Below, in pieces: positions 6,101 through 59,883 of a DNA stretch of 64,000 nucleotides. Where the stretch lies: assembly GCA_017609605.1 (NCBI GenBank), contig JAFCDO010000004.1, positions 14,184 through 78,183 on the forward strand, written 5' to 3'. Below the pieces are notes generated by a model. That model searched no databases. It had not been told where the DNA came from and worked only from the letters and a program-made list of their open reading frames with translations. Positions within the stretch are counted from its first letter, which is position 1. Each line of letters opens with the position of its first letter. A program made the position numbers and the translations under genes. Source of the DNA: Candidatus Parvarchaeota archaeon. Lineage in GTDB: Archaea > Nanobdellota > Nanobdellia > JAAOXT01.

Positions 6101-6206
6101 GGTCGGGTATTTCAGGCCAGTCCAGCAGTGGAATGACGGCAAACAGTCCGAGTTCATGAAAAGAAAAGAGTTCAGCAACGAAAAACTGTTAGAAAAAGCG
6201 AAATGA
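3129..6206 (+). CDS. nrdD: Anaerobic (class III) ribonucleoside-triphosphate reductase NrdD, interrupted by an intein
   Basis: N-terminal ATP-cone. Conserved NVPSRWGGQ/TPFSNLTFDW block split by the intein. C-terminal glycyl-radical motif SRVVGYFRPV with upstream Cys/His cluster. Confidence 0.9.
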   Translation: MSIERIQKRDGRIANFEPNKITDVIFKAAVAVGGSDRKLSEDLSKKVIKLLEETFPNGEIPCVEDVQDAVEKILIKNGHAKTAKAYILYRDRRARVRDSQNLLINIKELTDGYLSQADWRVRENGNMTYSLSGLMMHVTGAVLANYTLSNVYPPEISEAHRKGDIHMHDLGMGISGYCAGWSLRQLLMEGFNGVPGKIDSTPPKHLDSALWQMINFIGTLQNEWAGAQAFSSFDTFLAPFIKTDKLNYDKVKQAVQGFIFNMNVPSRWGGQCVSEDTECLTNNGWKFYKEISSKDKIATFNVKTKKIEYLKQERVKEYDYDGYLIKLSNRTQEQLVTPNHKVVRKVFNSNKYVLEEAEDLLKLKTGVMIPNSASTNSKEEVKDYLIELIAWLVSEGTFSEDRKRVSLFQSEKNKSKVEKIRKCLRENDFKWDETKRIHGFGNNYTIRFRLNQESSRKVRKTLNSKQVPEFVKKLSKRQIKLFIDTYVLGDGHVEKNGRTRIYTKDEGVLNSLQELCSLCEYGTTVYQRENGVYTINLIRNNDTLVKLSKVKYKGKVWCPTTKNGTFVARRKGNVFITGNTPFSNLTFDWMVPDDLKNAKAIVGGKEMDFNYGDCQKEMDMINKAFLEVMMSGDASGRIFTFPIPTYNITKDFDWDSENAKILFDMTAKYGIPYFQNFINSDLKPSDIRSMCCRLQMDMRELRKRGNGLFGAAEMTGSIGVITLNMARIGYLSKNKEDFLFRVEKQMTIAKNSLEIKRKVVEKNMEGGLMPFSKRYLGTLKNHFSTIGLNGMNEAMLNFMGKDLSDPEAIKFTKDVLEFMRNKIKEIQEETGHMYNLEATPAEGVSYRFAKKDVGLFPDIIVANPEEFKKGAEPYYTNSTTLPVDLTDDLFQALELQDDLQTLYTGGTVFHAFLKENLNSGETCKKLVQKVAESFKMPYFTVTPTFSICPVHGYLKGRVWTCPHEHTEAQIEKWGAKREEETVIPCEVFSRVVGYFRPVQQWNDGKQSEFMKRKEFSNEKLLEKAK
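3942..4865 (+). mobile_element. Intein (308 aa) with LAGLIDADG homing-endonuclease domain inside NrdD
   Basis: Begins at Cys (CVSEDTECLT). Block B is LVTPNH (TxxH). Two LAGLIDADG-type motifs (LIAWLVSEGT, FIDTYVLGDGHV). Ends ...NVFITGN followed by +1 Thr. Removing it restores the contiguous NrdD motif WGGQ-TPFSN. Confidence 0.8.
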
Positions 6207-6892
6207 ACATTGCAGGAATTATCAAAAACTCCTTCATAGATTTTCCCGGAGAGATAAGCGCCGTGGTCTTCACTCAGGGGTGCAACATGTCATGCCCTTA
6301 TTGTCATAACCCTGAATTAAATCCTACCAAGAAAGGAAGCGTTTCAGAAAAAGAAGTTCTTGAATTTCTTAGGAACAGGAAGAAATACTTGTCAGGAGTG
6401 GTGATAACCGGGGGGGAGCCGACGCTACAAAAAGGTTTGGACAATTTTTTGGCAAAAGTAAAGGCTTTAGGTTACTCTGTGAAACTGGATACGAATGGCT
6501 CGAACCCAGAAGTTCTGAAAAGGTTGTTTGGCAAAGGTTTATTGAATTACTTGGCCATGGACGTTAAAGCATCCCTCAAAAAATATGGTTTAACCACGCT
6601 CACTAAGGGTTTGGAAGAAAAAATTGTTGAATCAATAAGTATTATAAAAAACTCTGGGGTTGAGCACGAGTTCAGGATGACTGCTGTGCCGGGATTATTG
6701 ACAAAAAAAGATCTGGAAAGCATAGGAGAACTCGTCAAAGACTGCAAATTATTCGCTTTGCAACAATTCGTGCCAGATAAGGTTTTGAACAAAAAGTTTG
6801 CCAATGTGAAACCATTTTCAATAAAGGAATTGGAAGAATTTGCGAAAATAATGGAAAGTTATGCTCTGAAAGTTGCCATAAGGAATACGTAA
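6203..6892 (+). CDS. nrdG: Anaerobic RNR activating enzyme (radical SAM)
   Basis: CNMSCPYCHN (CxxxCxxC) cluster motif and GGEPTL motif. ATGA overlap with the nrdD stop. Confidence 0.9.
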   Translation: MNIAGIIKNSFIDFPGEISAVVFTQGCNMSCPYCHNPELNPTKKGSVSEKEVLEFLRNRKKYLSGVVITGGEPTLQKGLDNFLAKVKALGYSVKLDTNGSNPEVLKRLFGKGLLNYLAMDVKASLKKYGLTTLTKGLEEKIVESISIIKNSGVEHEFRMTAVPGLLTKKDLESIGELVKDCKLFALQQFVPDKVLNKKFANVKPFSIKELEEFAKIMESYALKVAIRNT

Positions 6893-17555: not shown

Positions 17556-17704
17556 TTCCATGGGAAACAGGGGAGTATGGTTCTATTTCTTGCAAAAGGA
17601 GTGTTTACTTCTTCATTGGAAATAAAGGGGTGTGTTTTGGACCCTGTTCTTGTTTTAGGTATGGAAAGAGTGTAATGAAATCTTCCATAGGAAGTTAAGG
17701 GGTG
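17556..17704 (+). repeat. Three ORB-like origin recognition boxes, right cluster (plus strand)
   Basis: TTCCATGGGAAACAGGGGAG (17556-17575), TTCATTGGAAATAAAGGGGTG (17612-17632), TTCCATAGGAAGTTAAGGGGTG (17683-17704). Degenerate half-sites GGAGTGT and GGAAAGAGTGT lie between them. Confidence 0.7.
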
Positions 17705-18207
17705 TGTGTGTCATATAGATTATTTTTGGCTTTTTTGAATAATGTTAGGTAATCTCTGCTCATCTTTTTGAACGTGCAAAATTGAATTAATGAATCTATT
17801 TTATTAAGAATTTTTTGTTTTTCAATGTCTGATATTTTTCTTTTGATCTTTTTTTCTATAATTTTTAATTCTTTTTCCATGACTTTTGTCCAATCAAATT
17901 CCATTTCTCTTTTTTCCATTTCCGGAATTTTTTCGGAGACGCGAATTGCTTGTGGGCCCAATGTGTAGTATGTTCTTTCTGTTTGGTCTCCCCAAGTGTA
18001 GTTACCTAGTTCTTTTCTTACTTTTACTAGTTGCACTTCTCCTGTTTTAACGCCTTGTTTTAGGTGATAATATATTGATTTCATGCTGACTTGTCCGAAA
18101 ACGTTTTTGTATATATGGTATATTTCGTAGCCGTAGGAGAATCCTTTTCTGTGCAGTATCTGACAAATCCGGTTTCGTATGATTGATCCTTTTGGCCGGC
18201 CCCTCAT
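17695..18207 (-). CDS. Winged-helix transcription regulator, PadR-like, with coiled-coil C-terminus
   Basis: Pattern GYEIYHIY...SIYYHLKQGVKTGEV...YYTL resembles the PadR wHTH. Start set at MRGRPKG (ATG 18207), which has a TATA ~38 nt upstream. Confidence 0.5.
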   Translation of the reverse strand: MRGRPKGSIIRNRICQILHRKGFSYGYEIYHIYKNVFGQVSMKSIYYHLKQGVKTGEVQLVKVRKELGNYTWGDQTERTYYTLGPQAIRVSEKIPEMEKREMEFDWTKVMEKELKIIEKKIKRKISDIEKQKILNKIDSLIQFCTFKKMSRDYLTLFKKAKNNLYDTHTP

Positions 18208-18240
18208 TTTATTACAATATTGTAAATTTCTGTTTGTGAA

Positions 18241-18250
18241 ATATATAAAT
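18241..18250. promoter_or_regulatory. Single TATA box shared by divergent genes
   Basis: ATATATAAAT is centred 38.5 nt from ATG 18207 (minus strand) and 39.5 nt from ATG 18285 (plus strand). Confidence 0.4.
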
Positions 18251-18284
18251 CTTTTAATATCCATTCTTTTGTTTTGTTATATTC

Positions 18285-30258: not shown

Positions 30259-31173
30259 ATGCGAAAACTATCACTATTAATTTTTTTTGTTTTGTTTCCA
30301 ATAGTTATGGGCGGAGAAGTAGGACCCCCTGCTTCCGAGCCAGAAGTGTTGGGCGGCGTTCTCGGCCCGGCAGTCGTGGTCCAGCAAGCCAACCTGTCTT
30401 TTGACATGGCGAGTGTTGAGCAAGCTTTTTTAGGAGAGCAATTCCAACCCGAACTATATTTGACGAACGTGGGAGACGGTGACGCGTTGATAACGTCTTC
30501 AGAGCTTGTCTGGACTTCGAACCAGAAGGGTTACGTGTCCGTTTCTTCTCCACAAGTCATTCCTCCAGGGTACACTTCAAGGTTTTCTTTTATCGTGGAC
30601 AAGTCTTCTTGCGTTGACTTTTCAACCAATCAAACTTTTCGTTTTAACATAACTTATTCTAACGCGACGGATGACACCGCCAATTTTCTCAGCAGTTTTT
30701 ATTGGCATAACATTAGCTCTCCATTGAGCATTAGAGGATTATCTGTGGACACCAATCAAGTGTTTCCTGTCTCGATGAGAGGTTTGGACAGGTTTACTTT
30801 CCTGTTCAGAAATGATGGAGCTGACGAGATAGATTATTCTTTGAGCGTTTCTTACCCTCAATCAGTGTTTCCAGAAATCGTTACTTCAGTTGGTGTTTTC
30901 CAGCCCGTCGACCTGCCAGACCAGAGTTTCAGCATTTCAGGGCTGGACAAGCAGGTTTTTGGAGTCATTCTTTACCCCATAACTCCTTCAGGTCCAAACC
31001 CTTTTGAGCTTAATCTGACAACGAATTGCGGTAACACTTCTCAAACCATTGGTTTCAGTTTGGAAGTCGTGTCAGAGCAGGCAGGTTTTTTCGCCACGGT
31101 TCCAGGGATTCAACCAATCTTTTTCTTAATCCTCCTGCTTTTAGCTGGATTGTTCTTATACCAAAAGCTTTAA
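30259..31173 (+). CDS. Secreted/anchored surface protein with a PGI-type C-terminal membrane tail
   Basis: Signal peptide MRKLSLLIFFVLFPIVMG. 7 N-x-S/T sequons. C-terminus VPGIQPIFFLILLLLAGLFLYQKL. Confidence 0.6.
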   Translation: MRKLSLLIFFVLFPIVMGGEVGPPASEPEVLGGVLGPAVVVQQANLSFDMASVEQAFLGEQFQPELYLTNVGDGDALITSSELVWTSNQKGYVSVSSPQVIPPGYTSRFSFIVDKSSCVDFSTNQTFRFNITYSNATDDTANFLSSFYWHNISSPLSIRGLSVDTNQVFPVSMRGLDRFTFLFRNDGADEIDYSLSVSYPQSVFPEIVTSVGVFQPVDLPDQSFSISGLDKQVFGVILYPITPSGPNPFELNLTTNCGNTSQTIGFSLEVVSEQAGFFATVPGIQPIFFLILLLLAGLFLYQKL

Positions 31174-31176: not shown

Positions 31177-31199
31177 ATTCATTATCCCCGTCTTTTTTT

Positions 31200-31474
31200 G
31201 GCTAGGCCGGGCAGCTAGCAGTTGCTTGTAACCACAAACCTGCTTTACGGTGGGGCTGAAGCTTGCCATGAGGGCTTGCGTTTTGGGAGTGGCCCGCGCT
31301 TTGAGCGTCGAAGCCTCGCCCGGACGGGTGCTTGTCCTCGTGAATCGGGTCAGACGGGGAACCGAGCAGCCCTAAGCGAAGTCATTGCACGCTGTTCGGA
31401 TTACGGGGTGGAGCGAGAAGCCGGAACAACCGTTCCCGGAGCGTTTGGTTCGAAAGGCAAGCACGCCAAACTCT
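31200..31474 (+). ncRNA. Signal recognition particle RNA (7S/SRP RNA)
   Basis: ~275-nt GC-rich island in an AT-rich genome. Helix-8 signature GGGTCAGACGGGGAACCGAGCAGCCCTAAG matches the conserved GGUCAG...GGAA...AGCAGCC..AAG. A T-run follows. Ends are approximate. Confidence 0.8.
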
Positions 31475-31512
31475 AACAATTTTTATTAACTCGTAAAATC
31501 ACGAGTTATGGG

Positions 31513-34500
31513 TTGAAATCTTTCAAAAACAAGAACGCTTTGGTAGTTTTAGGGATAGGTATTTTTATCTTTTTTTTCGTGCTGGCAGGTTTCTCCAGTA
31601 AAGCGTTCTTAAAAAGAAACGTGGTTTCATTGCTCTGCGTGTTTTGGTCAGCGGTTCTTGCAATCAATTTTTTGCTTCTTGAAAATCCTGTTGGAAAGAA
31701 AGCGTTTTCAAGACTTTTTTTTTACGCTCTGATAATATCTTTTTTTACGGTTTACACAGTGTTTTTCAGTGATCCCCAAATCGTTTTGGCTGCTTCAGCA
31801 GAGTACGGGCCTTGCACGGTTGATGGGGACTGTAACTCAAATAATTGTGTTGCTAATTACACTTCACCCTGTTACACTGAATGCATAGCTGACGGTCAAT
31901 GCGCCACCCAGACTCCTGGCATAGGAGCTTTTGGCTGGTTCCCTGAAGGGAGTTGTACTCTCCAAAGAGGAGATGATTCAACAAGCGGGTGTGGTTGTGA
32001 ATGTAGCAATAACCCCGCTGACACAACTTGTTGGGATGCCACTGGCACGAAGTGTTGCTCGAATTCTGCAGATGACTGGCTTTTCACTGGAAGCTCGACA
32101 AAAGGATGCGACAACGGCGTAGTTGTTAACTGCGCTTCAGGAACAGCTTGCCGTTTCATTGACGGGGCGACAGATTATTACTGCACTGGAAGCATTTTTA
32201 CAGAGGCTTCCACGGCAGCGGGCCAAACGTGCAACACAAATTATGTTTGTGACGGGAACGAAGGGACTTGTTGCAATTCAAACCTAATAAAAGACACTGA
32301 TACGAGCACTTACAATTGTGGTTGCGACGCTTACCATGACGGGTTCGCGTGCGACGGAACCGTAACAGGTGGAACGTTCACTCAAGACAAAGTTTGCATG
32401 TTCGTGGCTGCGCAAAGTAATTACTTGTGTTACGCTGCAATGGCTTCTTATAATAGCGGACTTAACAGGTATATTTACGGCTGCGAATATCCAACGGGTA
32501 CACCTCTATACGGAGATATATGTGATACGACTTACACTAACGGGAATTTTAACGCGAATGGAGTTTGTTATGGTTCAGGGAGTTGTTGCACCACGACGTA
32601 CGTTGACGGGGACAATGATGGAAATTTTGATGACAACGACTGTGGATGCTCTTCCACCCACGATGGCAAGAGATGTGACAGCAACGTTGACAGAACTTGG
32701 GATGGTGTATGCGCGTATACTGGTGCCGCCTGGACTTGTGATACTTCAGGTGTTTTTTATGATGGATCGGATTATAGAACTGCTGGTTCTAGCGCTACTG
32801 ATGGTTATCGTTGTATGAGTGGTTCAGTGGGTTCTGGAGGCTTTTCGCAGAACGGTATGAGTTCTGCTAGTTCTTGCACTACCTCTGATGTGGTTTGTCC
32901 TAACGGGAAGGGAAGTGCTTGCTCGTCTTGTTCGGCTAGTTCTGACGGGAACATGTGTGATTCTACAGTAACGTCTGGGGATTTCGGTCAGACGGGGATT
33001 TGTGCTAGCGTGGATGGGAATTCTTTTGATTGTGACGTGTCTGGTCACGTGGTTTATACGAGCGTGTATTATGATTCTGAGTGCGCGGGTTTGGAGAGTA
33101 AGACTTGTGATGCTTCTATTGTTTCGGGGGGGAATTATGGTGCTGAAGGGGTTTGTGTTGATAGTGGTTGCGTGACTGGTTTGGTGTCTTGTAATTGTGG
33201 TGTTGATGAGTCATGTTCGGGGGATGTGACTGATGCTAAGTGTAGTAGCGCGTGTTCGGCGGGTTATGCGTGTGACGCTGATGTGGGCGGTAACGCTTTT
33301 GAGCAGGACGGGCTGTGCTTGGACGGAACGACTTGTGATAACGCAGGAGTAGTTGCTAAATCAGGAAGCACGTATTACGCTGACTGCACCGCCAATTATG
33401 TGTGCGATGATTCCATAACCTTGGGAGATTGGGTGCAAACAGGTGTATGTTATGGTGGCACGACCAATTGTTGCACCAGTAATAATGTAATAGATAGTGA
33501 TAGGAATGGGAACGCTGACGTTTGCGCTGCCTGCTCTGCCACGTATAACGGGGACAAGTATGATAGCGCGCTGACCAGCGGGGTTTACGCGAGTGAAGGA
33601 CGTTGTGCTGGTTCCACGAAGTGTACTGTTGATTACGTGGACGCTGATGATAATGATTTGTTTGATGACGCGGTTTGCGGATGTACAGTAACTTATAATG
33701 GTAAAAAATGTGTGACCGATGCTGACGCGGATTCGTGGGATGGAATTTGCGTGACGACTGATGACGGGTCAACTTGGGATTGTGTTACCAGTGGTGTTTT
33801 TTGGGATGGTACTTATTATCGGAGTAGTGGGTCTAATGCTACTGATGGTTATCGTTGTATGAGTGGTTCAGTTGGATCGGGAGGCTTTTCGCAGAATGGT
33901 ATGGGTGCTGAAAGTGTGTGCAGAACTTCTGGAACAATCGCATGCCCTGCTGGGTCTGGAAGTGCTTGTTATTATTCTTGCACTTTATCAGAGGATGGTT
34001 ACCAGTGCGATAATACTGTTACTTCTGGTGATTTCAGCCAAACCGGGGCTTGCGCCACCAACGATGATGGGTCGACATGGACTTGTGATACAGATGCTTC
34101 AGACGTGGCGAGCACTGGGACTTATAACGCGACGGACTGCTACGTGAGCGCGTCGTACAATTACTTGGCTAACTCTTGCGACAGTCTTGGTAACAGTGGA
34201 GGAAACGTGGCTTATGATGGGGTTTGCTTCCAGCAAACAGGCACGACTTGGAATTGCTGCACGACTTATTCGACCAATAGCACGGAACTCGACAACCCTG
34301 ATGTGTGCGGAAACGAGGCAACAGTTTGCGGCGCGAGCTCGAACGGTTTAAAATGCGATGACGTTAGCGACGCGACGTGGAGTCCTGGTGACCAGAGGTG
34401 CGATGAAAGCAGCACTTCTTGTCGTGTTTGCACTTTTGCGACTCACGTTGATAGCGAAGCATTATGTGAGTCAGGATGCGGAGCCAACAGTATTTGCGAC

Positions 34501-37500
34501 GAAATCGCTATAGAAGCAGTATCTGGCAATTATTGTTGTCATTCTTGCACATCCCCTGATAACACTGTGTCAGGAACAGTTGTTTGGGGTGACTGTGACT
34601 ACAGTTCGCAGACAGGATCGAGCGATTATTGTTTTGATTTGAGCGCTGACCAGTGTTTCCACCAGTCAGGGGACTCGTGCACTGCTACGGGATGGGATTT
34701 CACTGAAACGGGTTGCCCGAACCCGAGACACCAAAACCAAGCGGGAAGCTGGGTTAACAATTCTTACTGCACAAGTAACTGTGCAGACTCCGGAACGTCA
34801 TGCTATTATGAGACGGGTTCAAACACTCCTGCAGACAGGTCTGATGATTGTAGTGCGTCGGGCTGCCAAGTAACTAGTTGTTCGATGCAAAAAGGATTTT
34901 TGTGCCAGGCAACAACTGGTTGCACTTGTGATAATACTGAATGCGCTGCTGACGCTGTACGGCAGGGATACCAGACGGGCAGTTGCTCTGGCGGGGCGTG
35001 CAATTATTCTCCAAAAGTTGACACGCATTCCATGAGTCCAGACCCTGTGTACATTAACGAGGAAGTGACATTCACTGCAACAGTTTCATCGGATGATGAG
35101 GACATAGCGAAAACAGAGGTTTGGGCTTACGTTACAGGAGATTACTCTGCTTATGAGATGAGTTGCACTGATGGCTCTTGCAGTTATTCACATAACTTCA
35201 CCGACCTCGGGCAGGGACAGTATTACATCAACGTTACGGACAACAATGGCTTGAGCAACACCAGCACTGTCGCTAATTGGTATCAAGAGTCGCTAACAGT
35301 GGATTATTTGAATTTCACTCCAACAGGTCACTACCCTGAAGCTCACTTGGATTACGGGCAAGACATTGTGGTGCAAGGCCATTTAGTTAATGACAGGACT
35401 AATGCTGACGAAACAGGGATTAGTGTAACAGTGAAAGTCATCAACACTTCTTGGCTGTTAGACAATGAATATTCGTGCTCTGGAAACACTGACGGGACAG
35501 GAAACTTCACTTGTACTATGACAAGCGTAAACCTGACCAAGCCAGGAAATTACAATTTGACAGTGTTGTTGGATGAAGTTCAGAACACGGATGATATTAA
35601 GAACGATGAAAACACAACGAAAGAGTTCAAGTTTTATGAGCCAATAGTTTTCACCAATGATTTCTGGGGAAAACCAGACGAACTTCACGTGAACACCACT
35701 GCGTCGTATCAGAACACTGGAACACTTGTTTCTTGCACTGATTGCGGAAATTATACATTAATGGATGCTGATAGTGGAGAGCACAAGTACCTTTTCACAA
35801 CGGACGCTAGCGGCGTGAACAAAACTATAATCACGGATACACCTCTTAAACCCGGCGTGAACACTTTCACAACATTCGTTGAGTATTATGGTAACGGCAC
35901 TTCATCCTCTACATCCATTATCGTGAACGGAACAGTTTATTCAGTATCACTCAGTGATTCAATATTGAGCCATTCCTCAGACGATTTGACAGTAACAGTT
36001 AACGTGAATAATACTGGAAACATAAACTTGTCAAGTCTTTGGGGTTTCACCGAAATTTATTATGGAGAGGATAATCTTGAACCCCTGGGTTCTCCGGAAA
36101 CAGCGGCTAGCAAGCTGAATGATTCCGATTCGTATATTGGTTTATTAACTCCTGCACAAACCCTTCAAATGACGTATGATTACGTTTTCAACGAAACATT
36201 GCCTGTCGGAACTTATGGTTTGCTATCGTACTTTGGGGACACAAACACGGGCGGAACATCTTGGGATAATAAAGTGGGTGTCAACCAGTCTGGAAACGCT
36301 TGGAGTAATATGCTTCCACAATTTTATTTGTATAATTACACGGCAACTCATGGCTCAGTCCTCGACCCCGTAAATGTTACGGAACAAACTATTTACGCAG
36401 ATCCGGTTAGGGATGAAGAATATGGTTCTACAACGAGTTGTTATGATAGCGGGACTTGCACAATCTTGTTGAACGTGACGAGAAATGAGGAGGTTGACGT
36501 GTACGCGAAGAACGCTCAACTCACGTGGAACAGCACTAGCAGTCGTTATGATTACACTTTTTGGCCAAATCTTTGCTACGAGAACAATTACACGATTTGG
36601 GTGGGAGACACTGCAATGGTTAACAACACTTTTAACGGAACTTTCTATTTCAACTGCTCTCTTAACACTAGAGCGTTGGTGTACAGGCAACCAGAAGATG
36701 ATGAGGACATAGGAATTTTTGAAGGAAACTTTATAGATAAAACTAAAGGAACAATCACTTTTTTCTTAGAGGCTTTTGACCCTTCTGGTCACGAGAACAT
36801 AGATTTCGTGGGATGGAACATAACTAACACTGATACTGGAGAGGTTTACACGGAATTCAGTGGTTCTTGCATGAACACTAGTCTTAAGAAGTGGAGGTGC
36901 AACCAAACACTTGACCCTGAGTTATCGGGTTGTCATCAAATGAGTTCTCAAATGTATGTGCAGGGAACGAATGCTTCCAGGAATAGTTCTCGCTCCCTTA
37001 ACTTTTACGTTGACGCGATTGACGCTTTATTCGATTATGATTCTAGCGTTCTTCTTGGCACGAACCAGCCAGTGATAGGACAAGTAAGTTATTGCAGTGG
37101 AGAGACTTATGGGGATTACTCCAACCTGAGCATTGAGATAACCACTCCTACTTCTGGAGAGGTTAAGAAAACTGAGACAATCACGCCTAGCGGAAACTTT
37201 TATTCTTCTTACACACCAGACATTCAGGGCTCAAAACATTTGAGAATTGAGGTGACTGATAGCAATATGGTCAGAGGATTCACTTTATCCTTCATTGATG
37301 TAATAGCAATATCTAAAACGGTTTTGACCCTTTCTCCAATAACGCAAGCGTTTGATTTGGGCAGGGAGGGTCAAAGAGCTTACATGTACGTTATAGATAA
37401 TCCTTCCTCGGAGCCAATGAGTTATAACTTGCAGTTGACTTCAGCAGCACTGCCAATGCTTTTCAGCGATAACTTGGCATCTTATAAGAACTTGACTGTT

Positions 37501-37746
37501 GGTGGGGACCAGGAGTACGTGGGGTATGTTGACGTCCTGCCAGTATCCATTGGAGAGTATTCGACCACTTTCTTCTTAGCGAACAAAGATTTCCCGTATG
37601 ATAACACTTCAACCGAATTGACAGCGGATGTTAGCGTGAGGTTTCAGCAGTCAGGGTTTCATTATAGTTTGTTGCCGGGTTTGAACGCGTTCTTCTTAGT
37701 TTTACTCTTACTTGTTGCAGGCTTTTTCCTGTGGGAACGTTTATAA
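31513..37746 (+). CDS. Giant (2077 aa) membrane-anchored surface protein: N-terminal TM helices, ~1050-aa Cys-rich region, ~930-aa sequon-rich beta-type region, PGL-type C-terminal tail
   Basis: Uninterrupted 6.2-kb ORF. By my count ~112 Cys lie between residues ~100 and ~1150, and 36 N-x-S/T sequons lie after that. C-terminus LLPGLNAFFLVLLLLVAGFFLWERL. The start (TTG 31513) is uncertain. Confidence 0.8.
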   Translation: MKSFKNKNALVVLGIGIFIFFFVLAGFSSKAFLKRNVVSLLCVFWSAVLAINFLLLENPVGKKAFSRLFFYALIISFFTVYTVFFSDPQIVLAASAEYGPCTVDGDCNSNNCVANYTSPCYTECIADGQCATQTPGIGAFGWFPEGSCTLQRGDDSTSGCGCECSNNPADTTCWDATGTKCCSNSADDWLFTGSSTKGCDNGVVVNCASGTACRFIDGATDYYCTGSIFTEASTAAGQTCNTNYVCDGNEGTCCNSNLIKDTDTSTYNCGCDAYHDGFACDGTVTGGTFTQDKVCMFVAAQSNYLCYAAMASYNSGLNRYIYGCEYPTGTPLYGDICDTTYTNGNFNANGVCYGSGSCCTTTYVDGDNDGNFDDNDCGCSSTHDGKRCDSNVDRTWDGVCAYTGAAWTCDTSGVFYDGSDYRTAGSSATDGYRCMSGSVGSGGFSQNGMSSASSCTTSDVVCPNGKGSACSSCSASSDGNMCDSTVTSGDFGQTGICASVDGNSFDCDVSGHVVYTSVYYDSECAGLESKTCDASIVSGGNYGAEGVCVDSGCVTGLVSCNCGVDESCSGDVTDAKCSSACSAGYACDADVGGNAFEQDGLCLDGTTCDNAGVVAKSGSTYYADCTANYVCDDSITLGDWVQTGVCYGGTTNCCTSNNVIDSDRNGNADVCAACSATYNGDKYDSALTSGVYASEGRCAGSTKCTVDYVDADDNDLFDDAVCGCTVTYNGKKCVTDADADSWDGICVTTDDGSTWDCVTSGVFWDGTYYRSSGSNATDGYRCMSGSVGSGGFSQNGMGAESVCRTSGTIACPAGSGSACYYSCTLSEDGYQCDNTVTSGDFSQTGACATNDDGSTWTCDTDASDVASTGTYNATDCYVSASYNYLANSCDSLGNSGGNVAYDGVCFQQTGTTWNCCTTYSTNSTELDNPDVCGNEATVCGASSNGLKCDDVSDATWSPGDQRCDESSTSCRVCTFATHVDSEALCESGCGANSICDEIAIEAVSGNYCCHSCTSPDNTVSGTVVWGDCDYSSQTGSSDYCFDLSADQCFHQSGDSCTATGWDFTETGCPNPRHQNQAGSWVNNSYCTSNCADSGTSCYYETGSNTPADRSDDCSASGCQVTSCSMQKGFLCQATTGCTCDNTECAADAVRQGYQTGSCSGGACNYSPKVDTHSMSPDPVYINEEVTFTATVSSDDEDIAKTEVWAYVTGDYSAYEMSCTDGSCSYSHNFTDLGQGQYYINVTDNNGLSNTSTVANWYQESLTVDYLNFTPTGHYPEAHLDYGQDIVVQGHLVNDRTNADETGISVTVKVINTSWLLDNEYSCSGNTDGTGNFTCTMTSVNLTKPGNYNLTVLLDEVQNTDDIKNDENTTKEFKFYEPIVFTNDFWGKPDELHVNTTASYQNTGTLVSCTDCGNYTLMDADSGEHKYLFTTDASGVNKTIITDTPLKPGVNTFTTFVEYYGNGTSSSTSIIVNGTVYSVSLSDSILSHSSDDLTVTVNVNNTGNINLSSLWGFTEIYYGEDNLEPLGSPETAASKLNDSDSYIGLLTPAQTLQMTYDYVFNETLPVGTYGLLSYFGDTNTGGTSWDNKVGVNQSGNAWSNMLPQFYLYNYTATHGSVLDPVNVTEQTIYADPVRDEEYGSTTSCYDSGTCTILLNVTRNEEVDVYAKNAQLTWNSTSSRYDYTFWPNLCYENNYTIWVGDTAMVNNTFNGTFYFNCSLNTRALVYRQPEDDEDIGIFEGNFIDKTKGTITFFLEAFDPSGHENIDFVGWNITNTDTGEVYTEFSGSCMNTSLKKWRCNQTLDPELSGCHQMSSQMYVQGTNASRNSSRSLNFYVDAIDALFDYDSSVLLGTNQPVIGQVSYCSGETYGDYSNLSIEITTPTSGEVKKTETITPSGNFYSSYTPDIQGSKHLRIEVTDSNMVRGFTLSFIDVIAISKTVLTLSPITQAFDLGREGQRAYMYVIDNPSSEPMSYNLQLTSAALPMLFSDNLASYKNLTVGGDQEYVGYVDVLPVSIGEYSTTFFLANKDFPYDNTSTELTADVSVRFQQSGFHYSLLPGLNAFFLVLLLLVAGFFLWERL
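32599..33036 (+). repeat. Intragenic module copy 1 (146 aa) of the giant protein
   Basis: YVDGDNDGNFDDNDCGC...ATDGYRCMSGSVGSGGFSQNGM...CDSTVTSGDFGQTGIC...FDCD. Homologous to 33634-34089. Confidence 0.8.
33634..34089 (+). repeat. Intragenic module copy 2 (152 aa) of the giant protein
   Basis: YVDADDNDLFDDAVCGC...ATDGYRCMSGSVGSGGFSQNGM...CDNTVTSGDFSQTGAC...WTCD. The 69-nt core 33838-33906 differs from 32794-32862 at 5 positions. Confidence 0.8.
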
Positions 37747-37773
37747 AACATTTACAACTTTTTAATCTTCATT

Positions 37774-37857
37774 GCTGGGGTGGCGGAGCGGTTTAACGCG
37801 CAGGCCTGCTAAGTCTGTGGGAGCAATCCCGCGAGAGTTCGAATCTCTCCCCCAGCG
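37774..37857 (+). tRNA. tRNA-Ser (anticodon GCU)
   Basis: Acceptor GCTGGGG/CCCCAGC plus discriminator G. Anticodon loop CTGCTAA. Long variable arm. T-loop TTCGAAT. Confidence 0.9.
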
Positions 37858-37895
37858 TAAAACATTTAACTCACCCTCTCCATTAATTTTGAATA

Positions 37896-42788: not shown

Positions 42789-45221
42789 ATGGATGATGAG
42801 TATCAGGTATCTCTTACAGACTTGGTGAGCAAGGTTAAAAAAAATAAAGACTTGTTGTTTTATTCAGGAGTTTTCGCGTTGTTGTGCTTAGCGTTCGTGA
42901 TAAGAACTGCTGACATGAAGAATTTGGGTTCAGAGTTGTTGGCGAGCGACCCGTACGTTTTTTTAAGGTACGCTGAAGACATGGTTGAGAGAGGGGGAAT
43001 CCCGCTTAATGATACTATGAGGTATTACCCTTTTGGTTTTGACACTAGTTTTGAAGCGCCCATGCCTTCTTACGCGATAGTATTGATTTATTCTATCGCC
43101 AATTTCTTCAATCCTGGAGTGGCTTTGTTGTGGGCTGCTCAGATTTATCCTGCAATCTTTAGCGTTTTGGCTTTGTTCGTGTTTGCTTTAATAGCTAAAG
43201 AGTTGACGGGAAGTAAGCGAATTGCTTTGGCTTCGCTTGCTCTTTTGTTATGTCTTCCAGCTTTTTTGTATAGGACTAGCGCGGGTTTCGCTGATAAAGA
43301 GCCTGTTGTGACGTTGTTCTCTTTGCTGATGGTTTACGCTTATGTTAGAGCCTTAGGGTCTGATAAGAAGTATTGGGTTTGGGCTGTTGTTTCAGGAGTG
43401 TTCACGGGTATTGCAGCGTTGTCTGGGGGCCTGTTCATTTTCGCCGTGTTTTCGATATGTGTTTACAACCTGTTCTCAATGTTGTTCTTGAGGATTGGGA
43501 GTAGAAGGATTAAAATCCTGGTTTTATGGTTTATTTCACAACTGCCAGTACTTGTTTTCGCGACTAAGCGTTTCGGCGGGCTGGAGATTTACAAGCACAT
43601 GGCTTTTCAAGCGCCTGCAGCGACGTTGGGAGTCTTAGTGGTTTATTTATTGGTAAAAAGATTGAAGGTGTCTGAAAAGTGGCCTGCGAGCGTGATAACT
43701 TTTTTTGTGCTTTTCGCGCTCGGTTTCACGGTTCTTGCGTTAACCCAGCAGGGAGGGATTGCTTCCGCGCTTTCAAGCATTCACACTCGACTCATGTATC
43801 CGTTGGGTTATAACGCGTTCCAGCAGAGCGTTTCCGAGAACCAGTCCCCTTACGTTTATGACCCTCAAGGCAGGACTGATTGGTGGAGCAATTTCGGATT
43901 CACTTTTCCTTTAATGCTTGCCGGTGCCATAATGCTTTTTTATTTCACTGTGAAGGACGTGAAAAGAAGTAATTTATTGACATTGATGTTTGCAGTCTTC
44001 CTGATATTTTTTATTTTCTCGCGATTCTCTTCAGACCCTGATTTCAGCGCGATAACGAGTTTTTTCACTGACTTCAATCTTTACGCTTTATACGCTTTCT
44101 TAGTTGCTTTGTTATTGTTCGTTCTTTATAATGGAACTAAAGCGGATTATGATAAGATTTCTTGGAAAACTCTTTTCCTTGTCTCGTGGTTTTTGATGAC
44201 AGTCATAGGAGCCAGAGGGGTTATCAGGTTGATGTTTGTGGCAGCCCAGCCGGCGATGATAGTTACCGCTTACTTTTTGATAAAGTTAAGTGATTTGATA
44301 CATAAGAAAACCAAAGACGCTTTGTACACGGCGGTTCCGTTAATAGTTTTAGGAGCTATTTTTATATTCTTTTCTTATCAGACTTACGGTTCAGCAAGTC
44401 ACACGTACCCAACATACAATCATTTCTGGAATGACGCGATGAATTGGGTGCAGGACAACACAAAGTCTTCTGACGTGTTCGTTCACTGGTGGGATTATGG
44501 TTACTGGATACAATCTCGCGGGGACAGGGCGACTGTTCTTGATGGGGGCAACTTTTTTGGACCAGAAATTATTGCTCGCCACTTTTTCACGTCCACTAAC
44601 ATTAGTGAGATAAGAGAAACACTTGATTATTACGGCAACCCAGAGTACTTATTAATAGAATCTAGCGACGTGTTTAAGTTTTATCAAATATCAAGGATTG
44701 GTGGAAGAGAGTCCTGGTTCTCAGGATTAATGTTTTACGGAGATAGAGGGATTAATCCGTCTATAGATAACATGTCCGCCGTCCTGGTTTACAACGCTGG
44801 CGGGGGCATACAGATAAGAGAGGATTATGTTAGGGACGGGAAGTTGTGGGCGAAGGACTCGACTTACATTGTTCAAGCAGTTATTCCTCATAACGAGACG
44901 GATAAACTTGACCCGCAGGTCGTGTTAATCAATAATTATGTTGGTCAGGCTTTGTTCCCGATAAGCTGTGTTTGCAAGTACGGGGCTTGCAGGACTGTTG
45001 ACGAGACGGGGGTTCCAGGGTGTCTGGTGTTGTTTGATGACGCCATGATTTACGCTCCTGACGAGTTGAGGGACATGCTTTTCACAAAGGTTTATTTGCT
45101 GAACAATTTTAGAGGAATAGAAAAAGTTTATGACAATCAAGTTCCATTGAGCGCTAACGCTTTTTATGGAGGGGTAACAAATATAAGAATTTATAGGATA
45201 AATTATACTGAACTAATATGA
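42789..45221 (+). CDS. aglB: Oligosaccharyltransferase AglB (STT3 family)
   Basis: 810 aa with ~13 TM helices and a C-terminal globular domain. Catalytic WWDYG motif at 44487-44501. Confidence 0.9.
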   Translation: MDDEYQVSLTDLVSKVKKNKDLLFYSGVFALLCLAFVIRTADMKNLGSELLASDPYVFLRYAEDMVERGGIPLNDTMRYYPFGFDTSFEAPMPSYAIVLIYSIANFFNPGVALLWAAQIYPAIFSVLALFVFALIAKELTGSKRIALASLALLLCLPAFLYRTSAGFADKEPVVTLFSLLMVYAYVRALGSDKKYWVWAVVSGVFTGIAALSGGLFIFAVFSICVYNLFSMLFLRIGSRRIKILVLWFISQLPVLVFATKRFGGLEIYKHMAFQAPAATLGVLVVYLLVKRLKVSEKWPASVITFFVLFALGFTVLALTQQGGIASALSSIHTRLMYPLGYNAFQQSVSENQSPYVYDPQGRTDWWSNFGFTFPLMLAGAIMLFYFTVKDVKRSNLLTLMFAVFLIFFIFSRFSSDPDFSAITSFFTDFNLYALYAFLVALLLFVLYNGTKADYDKISWKTLFLVSWFLMTVIGARGVIRLMFVAAQPAMIVTAYFLIKLSDLIHKKTKDALYTAVPLIVLGAIFIFFSYQTYGSASHTYPTYNHFWNDAMNWVQDNTKSSDVFVHWWDYGYWIQSRGDRATVLDGGNFFGPEIIARHFFTSTNISEIRETLDYYGNPEYLLIESSDVFKFYQISRIGGRESWFSGLMFYGDRGINPSIDNMSAVLVYNAGGGIQIREDYVRDGKLWAKDSTYIVQAVIPHNETDKLDPQVVLINNYVGQALFPISCVCKYGACRTVDETGVPGCLVLFDDAMIYAPDELRDMLFTKVYLLNNFRGIEKVYDNQVPLSANAFYGGVTNIRIYRINYTELI

Positions 45222-49162: not shown

Positions 49163-49405
49163 ATGCAAGAAAGAATAAGGAGTTTGTTACTTGATGGGGA
49201 GACGTCTTTGAAAGATTTGTGCAGAAGAACTGGTTTTGAGAAGAAGAAGGTTAAAAAAGTTTTGAGAAAGGTTGGTGCCGTGAAGGTTAAACGGGACGGC
49301 GTAACTCGTTATCATCTGGTTAAAAGAAAGGGTTTTACTTTAAGAATTTCTTTAGCCAGGATAAAAAACTTTTTTGAAGTTAACAATTTTGTTAAGGTAA
49401 AATGA
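49163..49405 (+). CDS. Small basic protein, possibly winged-helix
   Basis: ~80 aa. SD GGGAGGGA upstream of ATG 49163. Its 3' end lies inside the 85-bp direct repeat. Confidence 0.4.
   Translation: MQERIRSLLLDGETSLKDLCRRTGFEKKKVKKVLRKVGAVKVKRDGVTRYHLVKRKGFTLRISLARIKNFFEVNNFVKVK
49314..49398 (+). repeat. 85-bp perfect direct repeat, copy 1
   Basis: ATCTGGTTAAAAGAAAGGGTTTTACTTTAAGAATTTCTTTAGCCAGGATAAAAAACTTTTTTGAAGTTAACAATTTTGTTAAGGT is identical to 51481-51565. Confidence 0.95.
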
Positions 49406-51471
49406 AGTTAAAAATAAAAATGCCAGTTAACAAAAAGCATGTTTTACTACTAACATTCTTATTAGGACTTTTCATTGTTTTAAGAGTTCAAGGTTTTAGA
49501 CCTGATAATTCGGTTCCAAAACACATTGATTTTGGAGTTCACTTGCATAGGGTTCTTTTTCTGCAAAGGTATGGGTTCACTTTTTGGGACCCTTACGTGG
49601 CCGCGGGCTACCCTATCTTTCGTTACAGTAGCGTACTACCATGGGCTTTGACAGCGAGTTTGGCAAGTTTTTATGGAACGGTTCTTGGCTTTAAAGTGAT
49701 GCAAGTATTTCTTGTTGGGCTTATCTATATGTTCTTTTTTCTTTTTTGCAGAAAATATATTAAAAATAATTTAAGCATTATGGTTGCGCTATTGTTCTTC
49801 GCAGTCATTCAGAGACAAACAAGTTTTCCTCACGATGTTTTCTCAGATTTTTTAATGCACAGAAGTTTTCAATTCGTTTTCACACTCATTTTTCTTTACT
49901 TTTTTTTGGATAAGAAAAGGTTCGGCGTAAAACAAATAATTTTGTTGGGGTTATTATTAGCGGCTAGTTTTATGTCTCATAACCTGCAAGGAATAATGCT
50001 TCTAAAATTAGTTTTCATATTCTTGATTGCACGATTTTTCTTAAGCAAAAAGTTGATTCAAGGATCAACATTTCTTTTTGGGGTTTTCGTCGTGTTCTTT
50101 CTGGTGACCGGAGTGGTTCTCGTTCCAATGTTTCTTGAATCTGGTTTGATGAACATGCCTTTTAATGAACCTTACCTCCGTAATTGTGCTAAATCCTTAC
50201 AAGCATCTTTTCAGGATAATCTTAGGAGCCAGATTCAAAACTTGTCATTGAACTTAACGTTATTGAGCGCTAACGCGCAAACAATTTTGTTTTTATTTGT
50301 TTTAGGATTCATTTTTTTGAATTATAAGAGGATGAAGGAGTTAAGAACGATTTTGATTTTTATAGGGTTTATCGTTCTGGCAAATCTTTTATGGAGTGTT
50401 GGCATGACTTTAGCTCCAGAAGACATTGTAACTTATTTGTCTGTTCTTATTCCTTTGGACAGTAAGATTGTATACTTTTTCTTACCCATATTGCTTGTTG
50501 CTTCGTTCAATGCTTGCAAGTCTAATTGGAAATACATTTTTGCATTGAGTATTCTGGTAGCAGTCATAGGCAATTCTTTTTTGCAGGTTGACAAAATGTT
50601 TTTGTGGAGAGATTTTAATGTTGGGTCTGAATTGGAATCTGAGATATCCACAATATATTCTTATTTGAAGGATTATGAAAGGGTCGCTCTTTTCCCATCT
50701 CTTGGTTTTTTTTCAAAACTCCGCAACATTTACTTGGGCGGTCCTTTGAATGGTTGCGAATCTTATTTTTCGCTTGTGAACAATGTTAGCATAATAAACT
50801 TTCATCACGCGCCCTCTGACCCAAAATTTGATGTTTACACAGGGAAAGTCCAGAACCCTTTTATTAGTTATACTGAGAGTTTTTGTGATATAGAACCAAA
50901 CATAGCTAATTTCTCTGCAAAACCTTTCTCACTAGCAGGAAAGGTTGCTTATATGATGAACATATCAGAATTCAATAACATGGTGAATGCAGGAAATATT
51001 CAAGCAGTTGTGCTTAATCCTGTTTACAAACCGTTTGTGGATTTTTTCTTTTCCAATCAAGAGTTCAAATTAGTTAGGCAGATTAAAATTAATGCAACAA
51101 ATATTGGTAACACGTATTTGATCTTTGAAAAAGTTCCAAAGCCTAGTTTGCTTAAGTGCGGTTCAAGAGGAAATTATTCTATTCAAGACATAAGTCCAGA
51201 CATAACCAGAATATCATTTGATAACGTGACTAAAGGAGATAACTGTGAATTATCAATAACTTATCATCCATCATTAAATATGCAGATAGACGGTAAGCCA
51301 ATCGCTTTTTCAAGAACCAATTATGGATTCATAAGTTTTGATGCTCCTGCCGGTGACGGAGTTATAGAATTGAGTCTTGGGCATTCTTATGAAAAAATTC
51401 TTGCTTGGGTTTCTTTAATCTCTCTAGCAATTCTATTGTTTATCCTTTTTAGAACCCAAAGTGAAAAGTAA
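49402..51471 (+). CDS. Large polytopic membrane protein with C-terminal extracytoplasmic domain (GT-C-like candidate)
   Basis: 689 aa with ~12 TM helices, a ~250-aa soluble region and a terminal TM helix. Visibly more AT-rich than its neighbours. Start overlaps the upstream stop (ATGA). Confidence 0.55.
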   Translation: MKLKIKMPVNKKHVLLLTFLLGLFIVLRVQGFRPDNSVPKHIDFGVHLHRVLFLQRYGFTFWDPYVAAGYPIFRYSSVLPWALTASLASFYGTVLGFKVMQVFLVGLIYMFFFLFCRKYIKNNLSIMVALLFFAVIQRQTSFPHDVFSDFLMHRSFQFVFTLIFLYFFLDKKRFGVKQIILLGLLLAASFMSHNLQGIMLLKLVFIFLIARFFLSKKLIQGSTFLFGVFVVFFLVTGVVLVPMFLESGLMNMPFNEPYLRNCAKSLQASFQDNLRSQIQNLSLNLTLLSANAQTILFLFVLGFIFLNYKRMKELRTILIFIGFIVLANLLWSVGMTLAPEDIVTYLSVLIPLDSKIVYFFLPILLVASFNACKSNWKYIFALSILVAVIGNSFLQVDKMFLWRDFNVGSELESEISTIYSYLKDYERVALFPSLGFFSKLRNIYLGGPLNGCESYFSLVNNVSIINFHHAPSDPKFDVYTGKVQNPFISYTESFCDIEPNIANFSAKPFSLAGKVAYMMNISEFNNMVNAGNIQAVVLNPVYKPFVDFFFSNQEFKLVRQIKINATNIGNTYLIFEKVPKPSLLKCGSRGNYSIQDISPDITRISFDNVTKGDNCELSITYHPSLNMQIDGKPIAFSRTNYGFISFDAPAGDGVIELSLGHSYEKILAWVSLISLAILLFILFRTQSEK

Positions 51472-54764: not shown

Positions 54765-55247
54765 CTACCGATTTCTCCCAATAATAATATTTAATTTGCT
54801 TCTGATTTTGTTTATTTTATTTTCATCTAATTTTAAAATGATTGACTTGCATTTTACAAAAAGTTCAGGGGCTTTTTTAACCATGTTATGGAACTGCTTA
54901 TCTGGGACAGCCCGGTTCACGTAGTACTGCGAGTCTATTCTTGATTTGAGAGAATCCTCTAAGAAATCGATTTCATTTTCGCTGAAAAACTCGTTTAGGT
55001 AATTCTTGGCAAATTGTAATGTACAAGAGTGGATTCCGCATTTCACCCCGATTTTCATGAGAATAGAGTAAAGAGAGAAATACATGGTGTAATACGCAGT
55101 CGATATCTTCCATTCTTTAATCTTGTTAATTCTTATCGACTTTAGAGAGTTTTCTGCTTTTTTTATATAAGCTTCAGCAAGATTCGAATTCGGTTCAACC
55201 AGACTGATTCCATCATTTTGCTGTAAGCACCAATCCATCTTATTCAT
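54765..55247 (-). CDS. HEPN-domain protein (toxin-like partner of the upstream nucleotidyltransferase)
   Basis: 160 aa, all-helical pattern (AEAYIKKAENSL...AYYTMYFSLYSILMKIG...SRIDSQYY). 8-nt overlap with the MNT gene. Confidence 0.6.
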   Translation of the reverse strand: MNKMDWCLQQNDGISLVEPNSNLAEAYIKKAENSLKSIRINKIKEWKISTAYYTMYFSLYSILMKIGVKCGIHSCTLQFAKNYLNEFFSENEIDFLEDSLKSRIDSQYYVNRAVPDKQFHNMVKKAPELFVKCKSIILKLDENKINKIRSKLNIIIGRNR

Positions 55248-55830
55248 TTCTCAACACCATTTTTACTAATTCCTCAGCATTCAAAAATATTATGTGGTCT
55301 TTCAAAACCTCTTTTATCAAAATATCATTCTTAATGTTTTCTTCAAAGATACTCGTAGGGTAACTCTTAATACTTATCTCAACCCCATACATACTCGAAA
55401 TTTTTTTGACACGTTTTTTATCATAACTTCCTACAACGAAGATGTCAAGGTCAGATTCTTCTTTCTCAAGAGCTTTTGCATAACTGCCAAACACGAATCC
55501 AATCCCGTTTATAAAAGGAGTTATCTTAGCCAAAATTTCTCTTATTAAATCATGATTCTCCAAAAAAATTATTTTTTTGTATTGTTCAACAAAAATTAAG
55601 TAATCTTCGGCAATATCACTTTTTTTGATTTTATATACTTTGATTTTGCCTTTTGTTGATGATTCGAGAACAATTTTGTTCTCCAAATCGTTTAAAATAA
55701 GTTGGGCAGTCCTTGGACTTATTTTTAGAATTTTCTGAACTTCCCTTATATAATATTCTTTATCAAACCCTTTTGTGAACAAAGAAAGCACTTGCAAATG
55801 ATTCTCAGTTATGTTTAATTTTTCATACAT
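55240..55830 (-). CDS. wHTH + minimal nucleotidyltransferase (MNT) protein
   Basis: C-terminal GFVFGSYAKALEKEESDLDIFVV matches the GSxxxG...SDxD NTase motif. N-terminal HTH (IREVQKILKISPRTAQLILNDLE). Confidence 0.7.
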   Translation of the reverse strand: MYEKLNITENHLQVLSLFTKGFDKEYYIREVQKILKISPRTAQLILNDLENKIVLESSTKGKIKVYKIKKSDIAEDYLIFVEQYKKIIFLENHDLIREILAKITPFINGIGFVFGSYAKALEKEESDLDIFVVGSYDKKRVKKISSMYGVEISIKSYPTSIFEENIKNDILIKEVLKDHIIFLNAEELVKMVLRNE

Positions 55831-58935: not shown

Positions 58936-59883
58936 ATGACGAACGGTTCTTATCAGCCAAGTTCTCTCGCGGGAAGGAGGTTGACTGGCGAAGCCATTTC
59001 TCCGACGCACGGTACTTTCGGGACCAGCCAAGAAGGGGTTGGTATGGTTGCTACAAAAGAGTTGAAGAAACTGTGGAAAAAAGAGATTGACCACGAGAAA
59101 AAGATGTGCGGTAAAATCTTTGACTTCACGAAAGATTATGTTAAGGATGATGTTAAGAATTTTAAGAAAAGAGCGAAGGATGTTCTGAATTATATTTACA
59201 ACATGGAAAAGAAGTTTCAAGGGATGACAAGAACTGGAGCTATGACTAAAAGAGGTGGGCGAGTGGACTTGAAGAAACTCCGAAAAAACGTTCAAAGATA
59301 TTATGGGGTTGGAGCGGATGATATGATAAAAGGAAAGAAAAGAGATAAGAGCGTGAAACCCGGCGAGTCAATAATTGAGAAAGCAGAGTTTTATGGAACT
59401 GACCGTTACCTAAAAGACGAAAAGAAGAATCAAGAGAAGAATTATGACCTCATTAAAAGGGCAATAGATGCTGGTTTCGTGAACACGCCTTCAGGAGTGA
59501 AAGACGGGGTTCCTGGAAAAGTTATTGGATTAATGGGGATTATAGGCATGGCAGAACAAATATGTTCGCAAGTTAGAACTTTTGTTGATTCCACTTTAGA
59601 AAATAATATTGCAGATATCATCACTAACGGGAAACAGGGGCTTGAAGCGTTTGGGGACACAGCGGATAAAGGCGCTGACCTTTATCGTGGTAGGCTTACA
59701 GGGGTTAGGATAGCGTATGATAGGAGGCGAGCAGGAGTCTCAGGAGCTATTGACAACGCTCGTTCTCGCGTGCAGGATGTTAAAACCGTTTACCAGCCTC
59801 CTAAAGAGCAATTCCGAACAGCGCAGTCACCGCCTCCGGGAAGCCCGCCTGTAACGAAACCGCCAGCGCCTCCAGCGGTTTAA
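58936..59883 (+). CDS. Hypothetical protein with Lys-rich core and Pro-rich C-terminus
   Basis: 315-codon ORF ending ...SPPPGSPPVTKPPAPPAV. No recognised domain. An alternative start exists at ATG 59044 (RBS-like AAGGGG). Confidence 0.4.
   Translation: MTNGSYQPSSLAGRRLTGEAISPTHGTFGTSQEGVGMVATKELKKLWKKEIDHEKKMCGKIFDFTKDYVKDDVKNFKKRAKDVLNYIYNMEKKFQGMTRTGAMTKRGGRVDLKKLRKNVQRYYGVGADDMIKGKKRDKSVKPGESIIEKAEFYGTDRYLKDEKKNQEKNYDLIKRAIDAGFVNTPSGVKDGVPGKVIGLMGIIGMAEQICSQVRTFVDSTLENNIADIITNGKQGLEAFGDTADKGADLYRGRLTGVRIAYDRRRAGVSGAIDNARSRVQDVKTVYQPPKEQFRTAQSPPPGSPPVTKPPAPPAV

Follow-up and report, generated by a model that had tools for sequence, protein, structure and literature searches.

A giant, putatively surface-exposed protein with a repeated four-cysteine module in a DPANN archaeon

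How DPANN archaea and bacteria of the Candidate Phyla Radiation (CPR) recognize and hold their partners is largely unknown, and giant surface proteins that lack annotation abound in their genomes. A candidate for such a protein is encoded in the 64,000-nucleotide stretch of contig JAFCDO010000004.1 from a Candidatus Parvarchaeota archaeon that is analysed here as a whole (the window). Its open reading frame (ORF) of 2077 amino acids (aa) begins with a head crowded with cysteines and continues with a Cys-poor part rich in N-glycosylation sequons. What is this head built from, and what might such a protein be for? The first-pass annotation had noticed a repeated Cys motif and had proposed a glycosylated adhesin or an S-layer-like protein. 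As judged from sequence, the head is made largely of a ~50-aa module with four conserved cysteines that appears to be a rare, previously undescribed repeat family of DPANN- and CPR-like organisms. For the protein as a whole, we consider it somewhat more probable than otherwise that it is a C-terminally anchored surface glycoprotein used for attachment—with a glycan-coated stalk and a bare, acidic, disulfide-locked rod bearing a variable tip.

The gene and its repeat

The ORF starts with TTG (Table 1) and agrees closely with its earlier description: 110 of its 127 cysteines lie at aa 100–1150, where ~112 had been counted, and 16 lie beyond aa 1150; exactly the 36 sequons (N-x-S/T) claimed for the C-terminal part are found past aa 1150, out of 41 in total; and the four peptides given as examples of the motif are located at aa 337, 482, 587, and 631. 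The gene is real and intact and belongs to a Nanoarchaeota-like archaeon of the DPANN group. The sole close relative is P0002, a protein of 1800 aa, which is ~90% identical and sits at a fully syntenic locus in a metagenome-assembled genome (MAG) labelled Nanoarchaeota archaeon, isolate DPANNHV_H2.bin.114; a scan of genome contigs yielded no locus beyond this already known MAG. The main difference between the two orthologs is a clean, in-register indel in the global alignment, P0002 being without aa 523–821, while lesser indels lie near aa 117–147. Codon changes at aa 839–2077 comprise 338 synonymous and 118 non-synonymous ones, with third positions dominating. This third-position bias is also evident at codons 54–95, but ambiguous at codons 1–53, which leaves the true start codon uncertain.

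An artefact—a long noncoding frame, or the assembly chimera that the first-pass annotation had itself raised—might be suspected since the source is repetitive metagenomic sequence and since P0002 is shorter by 277 aa. Yet, the same gene occurs in the same context in an independent MAG, the length difference is an in-frame indel in the register of the units, substitutions are strongly biased to the third codon position, and the Cys repeat has 15 further genuine distant homologs. Also, the Cys counts of the mature region are even in both orthologs (126 in the giant protein and 96 in P0002), as is that of the indel block (30). Finally, the longest internal DNA repeat of the gene measures 157 nucleotides (nt) at 78% identity, which makes assembly collapse or chimerism across the repeats very unlikely. 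An artefact of either type can, in our view, practically be dismissed.

The motif reported at first, C-D-x(5-8)-G-x-[FWY]-x(2-3)-G-x-C, is met literally five times in the Cys-rich region, while shuffles that preserve composition contain it 0.01 ± 0.11 times. When the clear copies are turned into a profile, 14 units are recognized at aa 270–990 and a weaker 15th one at aa 985–1031. The "about a dozen copies" of the first-pass annotation therefore stand for a degenerate unit, but not for the literal pattern. Its unit size of ~20 residues has to be corrected: the real unit spans ~50 aa and bears four conserved cysteines (C1–C4), the earlier motif being the core of it. The 14 tandem units of the giant protein follow the pattern xC1x6Gx2C2Dx5GxFx3GxC3x5C4xT, and 100 units of the family give the consensus sC1s...dGd.C2Dstvt.G.Fsq.G.C3a...tC4dT. 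On a larger scale, tiled self-BLAST reveals a duplication within the head that the first-pass annotation had missed, with aa 334–549 and aa 680–906 sharing 50–65% identity.

Does this unit correspond to a known domain? With E values of up to 1 allowed, neither Pfam nor NCBIfam offers a match for the Cys-rich half, nor do they with E up to 0.01 for the Cys repeats of eight relatives; EGF, furin-like, TNFR, hevein/Chitin_bind_1, DUF4215, TSP_3, and Ephrin_rec_like gave no significant match in those scans. A phmmer search and two profile searches of the PDB sequences returned nothing significant (the best hit, an unrelated immunoglobulin (Ig) lectin at E 0.079, is spurious), and no described Cys-rich surface repeat of DPANN or CPR organisms was found in the literature.

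The unit has relatives nonetheless. In an exhaustive HMMER search of 1.84 billion cluster representatives with the unit profile, no more than 17 proteins scored at E 1e-3 or better. Apart from the giant protein itself, the remaining 16 have E values of 5.6e-4 or lower; P0013 among them was rejected as a family member as its low-complexity tandem repeat makes the match spurious. Members named in their source are annotated as hypothetical, except for one DNRLRE domain-containing protein. In the eight relatives scanned by Pfam, accessory domains—Laminin_G_3, Glug, Big_13, and DUF2341—are found outside the Cys repeats. By eye, the connector behind the array of the giant protein resembles the C-terminal part of the member P0018.

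On the archaeal side, the family comprises the giant protein, two proteins of the Nanoarchaeota MAG (P0002 and P0010), and P0007 from a Micrarchaeota MAG. A bacterial context is seen for P0004, whose contig carries GroES and a bona fide GroEL (TIGR02348, 804 bits), and for P0022, which adjoins DciA, a bacterial-type phenylalanyl-tRNA synthetase, and a type IV secretion system pilin; P0008 was binned as Patescibacteria, the binning of short contigs being uncertain. Archaeal and bacterial members share 27–39% identity over 120–800 aa, with the best cross-domain alignment between P0010 and P0004 (34.6% over 535 aa, E 2e-60). Taken together, these alignments and contexts indicate that the family spans both domains. 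All members that are labelled or can be typed by context belong to ultra-small or uncultivated lineages. Scans of metagenome contigs with the stalk and with an alignment of four consecutive units (the supermodule described below) gave no confirmed relatives.

At two loci, family members adjoin further giant genes (L005 1–6702 and L009 11182–16657). Encoded as giant neighbours there are a Laminin_G_3 protein of 3333 aa and a protein of 3189 aa that matches Big_7 faintly; the two regions look like clustered genes for giant surface proteins. A conserved 176-aa partner gene downstream was also considered and rejected: the 176-aa ORFs after the giant gene and after P0010 are unrelated.

Chemistry and fold of the Cys-rich head

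Within the 100 family units, C2 and C4 are near-invariant, while the presence of C1 covaries with that of C3 (phi 0.69). This joint loss suggests a disulfide pattern of C1–C3 and C2–C4 in each unit. The 14 cysteines of the stalk, which fall into seven near pairs, fit disulfides as well. The even Cys count of both orthologs would hereby translate into ~63 disulfides in the giant protein.

A supermodule of four units, aa 327–530, is conserved in P0009, P0011, P0014, P0017, and P0018. From a 10-sequence alignment, AlphaFold2 models it with a mean predicted local distance difference test (pLDDT) score of 89.7 and a predicted template modelling (pTM) score of 0.81; the model contains short β-strands and 3-residue helical turns only. 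Foldseek finds no match to this model in the PDB, the sole rows being disintegrin/Cys-rich chains of snake-venom metalloproteinases (2dw1 and 2e3x, E 7–8, template modelling (TM) score 0.10), and none in BFVD (best E 9.3). The earlier remark that the unit could be assigned to no named domain is thus borne out by Pfam, NCBIfam, PDB sequences, and fold comparison alike.

A very divergent version of a known disulfide-rich repeat—EGF/laminin-EGF, TNFR/furin-like, hevein-like, disintegrin/Cys-rich, or DUF4215-type—might be too remote for HMMER and Foldseek to recognize. Matching is difficult for small folds rich in disulfides, and the only Foldseek rows are of such a type, albeit at the values given above. 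On the other side, even permissive thresholds brought up no Pfam or NCBIfam family, the PDB profile searches remained non-significant, and BFVD offered nothing. A disguised known repeat hence appears distinctly unlikely to us, and we continue with the module as a family of its own.

A different question is whether the cysteines form disulfides at all. They might instead be free thiolates binding metals or sulfide minerals, for instance in order to attach to vent minerals, to sequester metals, or to transfer electrons. The head consists of cysteine to 10.4%; the organism looks anaerobic, as had been noted before, with one operon of the window encoding NrdR together with the anaerobic ribonucleotide reductase NrdD and an activase similar to NrdG; and the closest MAG bears the isolate label DPANNHV_H2.bin.114. 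The distal ~1080 aa are, furthermore, strongly acidic (138 D+E versus 33 K+R), and D-rich loops of the head, such as DGDNDGNFDDND, resemble Ca-binding loops. However, histidine is very scarce (0.7%), and the conserved cysteines are 10–26 residues apart, unlike the CxxC/CxxH pairs by which metal sites are typically marked. Disulfides are in keeping with the even Cys counts and with the joint loss of C1 and C3, and AlphaFold2 folds the units confidently as compact β-hairpin modules without a cofactor. Metal binding by free thiolates is therefore very unlikely in our estimation, and a disulfide-locked head is assumed in what follows.

Stalk, anchor, and tip

The sequons set the two parts of the protein apart. 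The stalk (aa 1176–2050) holds 35 of them against 15.6 ± 3.3 in shuffles, a 2.2-fold enrichment, whereas the Cys-rich part holds six against 15.7 ± 3.4 (depletion P ~0.001). These opposite statistics reinforce the two-part build proposed by the first-pass annotation. It had also pointed to a glycosylation island, and AglB indeed lies 5 kb downstream, followed by ~10 glycosyltransferase genes as recognized by Pfam (GT4, GT2, PMT_2, GT22, and GT1) in an island that reaches ~62 kb. The stalk might accordingly be expected as a surface region glycosylated by AglB. Its only Pfam match is PKD-like (K319L-like) at aa 1182–1253 with a marginal E of 0.85, and comparison of the stalk with itself by hhalign showed no internal repeats.

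Behind the stalk, the protein ends in a tripartite arrangement, in which a hydrophobic helix stands between a short motif and a charged end, and which is conserved in the orthologs. The first-pass annotation had not mentioned this PG[LI]-hydrophobic-basic tail, which is common to the giant protein and the 304-aa protein of the neighbouring gene. The last domain of the latter is homologous to aa 1945–2077 of the giant protein (E 5e-6 in a small local database), and this 304-aa protein has a HYDIN/VesB Ig-like Pfam match that is sub-threshold at E 7e-4. The genes of the two proteins bracket the signal recognition particle (SRP) RNA gene.

At the N-terminus, where transmembrane helices had been described, three hydrophobic segments are present (aa 10–27, 37–56, and 68–85), but they may as well form an extended signal peptide. 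The third one resembles a cleavable Sec signal peptide in its arrangement of n-region, h-region, and A-x-A (GKKAFSR-LFFYALIISFFTVYTVFF-SDPQIVLAASA/EY, the slash marking the possible cut). Upstream, the 40-nt spacer before the giant gene is near-identical at the ortholog locus. The element TTTTTATTAA within this region would fit a leaderless transcript starting at the TTG, but could equally be the terminator of the SRP RNA.

In the tip of the protein, the stretch of aa 117–177 (31861–32043) is hypervariable, with 42–54% identity to P0002 versus 90–95% elsewhere and a 23-aa indel. The related MAG, but not the window, encodes a paralog of the tip as a secreted Cys-rich protein of 388 aa (L001 8501–9667), whose gene sits between a 295-aa gene and the SRP RNA gene, shortly upstream of the latter. 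At aa ~127–152, the nucleotides of the giant gene are 67% identical to this paralog versus 50% to the ortholog and include an identical 17-mer, while in the flank the relation reverses (82% to the ortholog versus 57% to the paralog). Such a mosaic suggests gene conversion between tip cassettes—or cassette exchange—at the tip, with few sites to judge by.

We infer that the protein lies at the surface, that glycans are in fact attached to it, that its cysteines form disulfides instead of binding metal, as Cys covariation suggests, and that it acts as an adhesin or in an S-layer. On the favoured reading, it might work as follows. It would be exported by Sec, with the third hydrophobic segment acting as a signal peptide that is cut after VLAASA, and be held in the membrane by its C-terminal PGL-hydrophobic-charged tail, either as a plain transmembrane anchor or as an archaeosortase-like substrate. 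The membrane-proximal ~875 aa would form a β-rich stalk coated with glycans by the nearby AglB pathway, for which the sequon enrichment is a statistical pointer. The distal ~1080 aa comprise, by sequence and model, the Cys-rich tip, 14–15 four-Cys modules, and the Cys-rich connector. Each module is predicted as a small β-hairpin unit, probably locked by C1–C3 and C2–C4, and the modules may stack into a rigid rod that presents the fast-evolving stretch of the tip to a partner cell or surface. Gain or loss of repeat blocks could alter the reach of this rod. An attachment role fits because repeat blocks are gained or lost, the tip is hypervariable, and relatives carry lectin- or Ig-type accessory domains.

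Alternatively, the protein might be the main structural glycoprotein of an S-layer or cell envelope, or a component of a sheath, with the Cys-rich region rigidifying the lattice. It is large and secreted, its sequon-rich region lies near the AglB island, it ends in a C-terminal anchor, as does the S-layer glycoprotein of Haloferax (PMC6098224), and the 304-aa protein encoded beside it, whose tail is of the same type, would offer a possible partner. S-layer proteins are, however, usually conserved within a lineage, whereas here a single ortholog with a varying repeat number and a hypervariable tip is found. Also, a second paralog exists in the related MAG, and family members are multidomain, adhesin-like, and in part bacterial. 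We thus regard a structural envelope role as rather unlikely.

A C-terminally anchored attachment protein remains the favoured reading, and several points weigh against it or parts of it. The three N-terminal segments, if they are uncleaved transmembrane helices, would tether the protein at both ends. As known sorting signals, the tails were rejected: NCBIfam gave no match with whole proteins at E up to 1 or with isolated tails at E up to 10. No archaeosortase or exosortase is found among the 33 window ORFs scanned by Pfam, with ~10 window ORFs unscanned, or among the Pfam matches of the syntenic genes of L001. The AlphaFold2 model of the stalk, based on three sequences, is unusable at pLDDT 29 and displays β-strands only. 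For the head, domains that are small, irregular, and rich in disulfides are a weak point of Foldseek. The ~63 extracellular disulfides in an apparent anaerobe need an explanation, and no thiol-disulfide oxidoreductase was seen by Pfam among the scanned ORFs of the 64-kb window. Finally, the ratios of non-synonymous to synonymous changes are alike in head and stalk, so that they give no sign of diversifying selection beyond the tip.

Genomic setting and known systems

The coordinates of the features discussed are collected in Table 1. The host is taken as archaeal because of the archaeal SRP RNA, PolD, Cdc6, and AglB; the window also encodes aIF5A and an archaeal-type AdoMet synthetase. The 1025-aa NrdD (3129–6206, + strand) contains a LAGLIDADG_3 match at aa 479–544, probably an intein, and is flanked by the NrdR-like repressor (2664–3116) and the radical-SAM activase (6203–6892). 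Beside Cdc6, a 189-aa ORF (17695–18264, − strand) has a weak, sub-threshold match to a Card1-like endonuclease (E 8e-4). Within the glycosyltransferase island, a HEPN-domain ORF lies next to a nucleotidyltransferase ORF in a toxin–antitoxin-like arrangement (54765–55830, − strand), and two ORFs of the island are without any Pfam match (49402–51471, + strand, 689 aa, and 58936–59883, + strand, 315 aa).

Table 1. Features of the giant gene and of its surroundings, in positions of the window
Feature	Position	Strand	Basis
Whole gene, 2077 aa + stop codon	31513..37746	+	ORF listing, TTG start
N-terminal hydrophobic region, aa 1–95	31513..31797	+	Translation; 85–95% identical in P0002
Cys-rich N-terminal cap/tip, aa 96–267, 21 Cys	31798..32313	+	Ortholog identity, paralog
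Array of 14–15 units of ~50 aa, four conserved Cys each, aa 268–1031, 75 Cys	32314..34605	+	HMM matches, alignments
Four-unit supermodule, aa 327–530	32491..33102	+	AlphaFold2 model
299-aa block of six units, aa 523–821, 30 Cys; absent from P0002	33079..33975	+	Global alignment, Cys count
Non-repeat Cys-rich segment (connector), aa 1032–1175, 16 Cys	34606..35037	+	Cys count
Cys-poor, sequon-rich stalk, aa 1176–2050, 35 sequons, 14 Cys in 7 near pairs	35038..37662	+	Shuffles, Cys counts
C-terminal tail LPGLNAFFLVLLLLVAGFFLWERL: PG[LI] motif, hydrophobic helix, short charged/basic end	37663..37743	+	Sequence; both orthologs
304-aa secreted, sequon-bearing protein with the same tail type (VPGIQPIFFLILLLLAGLFLYQKL)	30259..31173	+	Sequence
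Archaeal SRP RNA, directly upstream	31195..31472	+	Rfam RF01857, 128.7 bits; same arrangement at ortholog locus
TTTTTATTAA, TATA-like box 24–33 nt before the TTG, or oligo-T terminator of the SRP RNA	31480..31489	+	Read from sequence
tRNA-Ser(GCT), directly downstream	37773..37858	+	–
AglB/STT3 oligosaccharyltransferase, first gene of the glycosyltransferase island	42789..45221	+	Pfam STT3, STT3-PglB_core

What would follow from this protein depends on how far the reading carries. The module might be a new disulfide-rich fold and serve as a rod for attachment that has been passed between the two radiations of tiny episymbionts, the DPANN archaea and the CPR bacteria, with partner specificity set by a recombining tip cassette and by repeat number. 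We offer this idea tentatively and consider it doubtful as a whole; if true, it would imply an unrecognised capacity for oxidative folding in a DPANN archaeon that lives anaerobically, this one protein containing ~63 disulfides. Should the family turn out to have a known fold in divergent form, or to be an ordinary envelope protein, then the giant protein would be merely one more lineage-specific surface protein. The repeat family offers clear unit boundaries, a predictable disulfide pattern, and a confident AlphaFold2 model: the supermodule is a concrete construct for structure determination, and the unit profile might serve as a marker for similar proteins. This makes the system a testable case for the sharing of attachment hardware across domains and for extracellular disulfide chemistry in anaerobes.

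Among DPANN archaea, the SPEARE giant proteins of Nanohaloarchaeota—said to have been described by Hamm et al. in 2019—are reportedly surface-associated proteins of an episymbiont with a proposed role in host contact. Their domains are reportedly of protease, adhesion, and endonuclease type, without Cys repeats; homology between them and the giant protein was not detected.

Substrates of archaeosortases carry a tripartite C-terminal signal of motif, hydrophobic helix, and charged end, and these enzymes have been described only for a subset of Euryarchaeota (PMC6098224). The giant protein would resemble ArtA substrates—PGF-CTERM proteins such as the S-layer glycoprotein of Haloferax volcanii—in its predicted Sec export and N-glycosylation, its AglB context, and its tripartite C-terminus. 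Unlike them, it has PGL/PGI instead of PGF, and its Cys-rich head is without a counterpart.

For the head, a likeness of kind only can be drawn to TNFR/furin-like domains, the variant surface proteins of Giardia, and the disintegrin/Cys-rich domains of snake venom, which are likewise surface rods of disulfide-locked β-hairpin modules. The Cys spacing and the CD...G.F...G.C core differ from these, and the similarity is non-significant.

A parallel in overall architecture is given by the adhesin-like proteins of Methanobrevibacter and Methanosphaera (PMC11532034) and by bacterial Ig-repeat adhesins (PMC10619420), which share the size, the division into a stalk and a distal region, a strain-variable repeat number, and lectin or Ig accessory domains—the latter found here in the relatives. 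These adhesins are built from Ig-like, Big, or β-helix repeats that Pfam recognizes, in contrast to the ~50-aa four-Cys modules described here. As a giant surface protein with repeats in an archaeon of the episymbiont type, the protein belongs to an already known kind, and what appears to be new about it is its distal four-Cys module.

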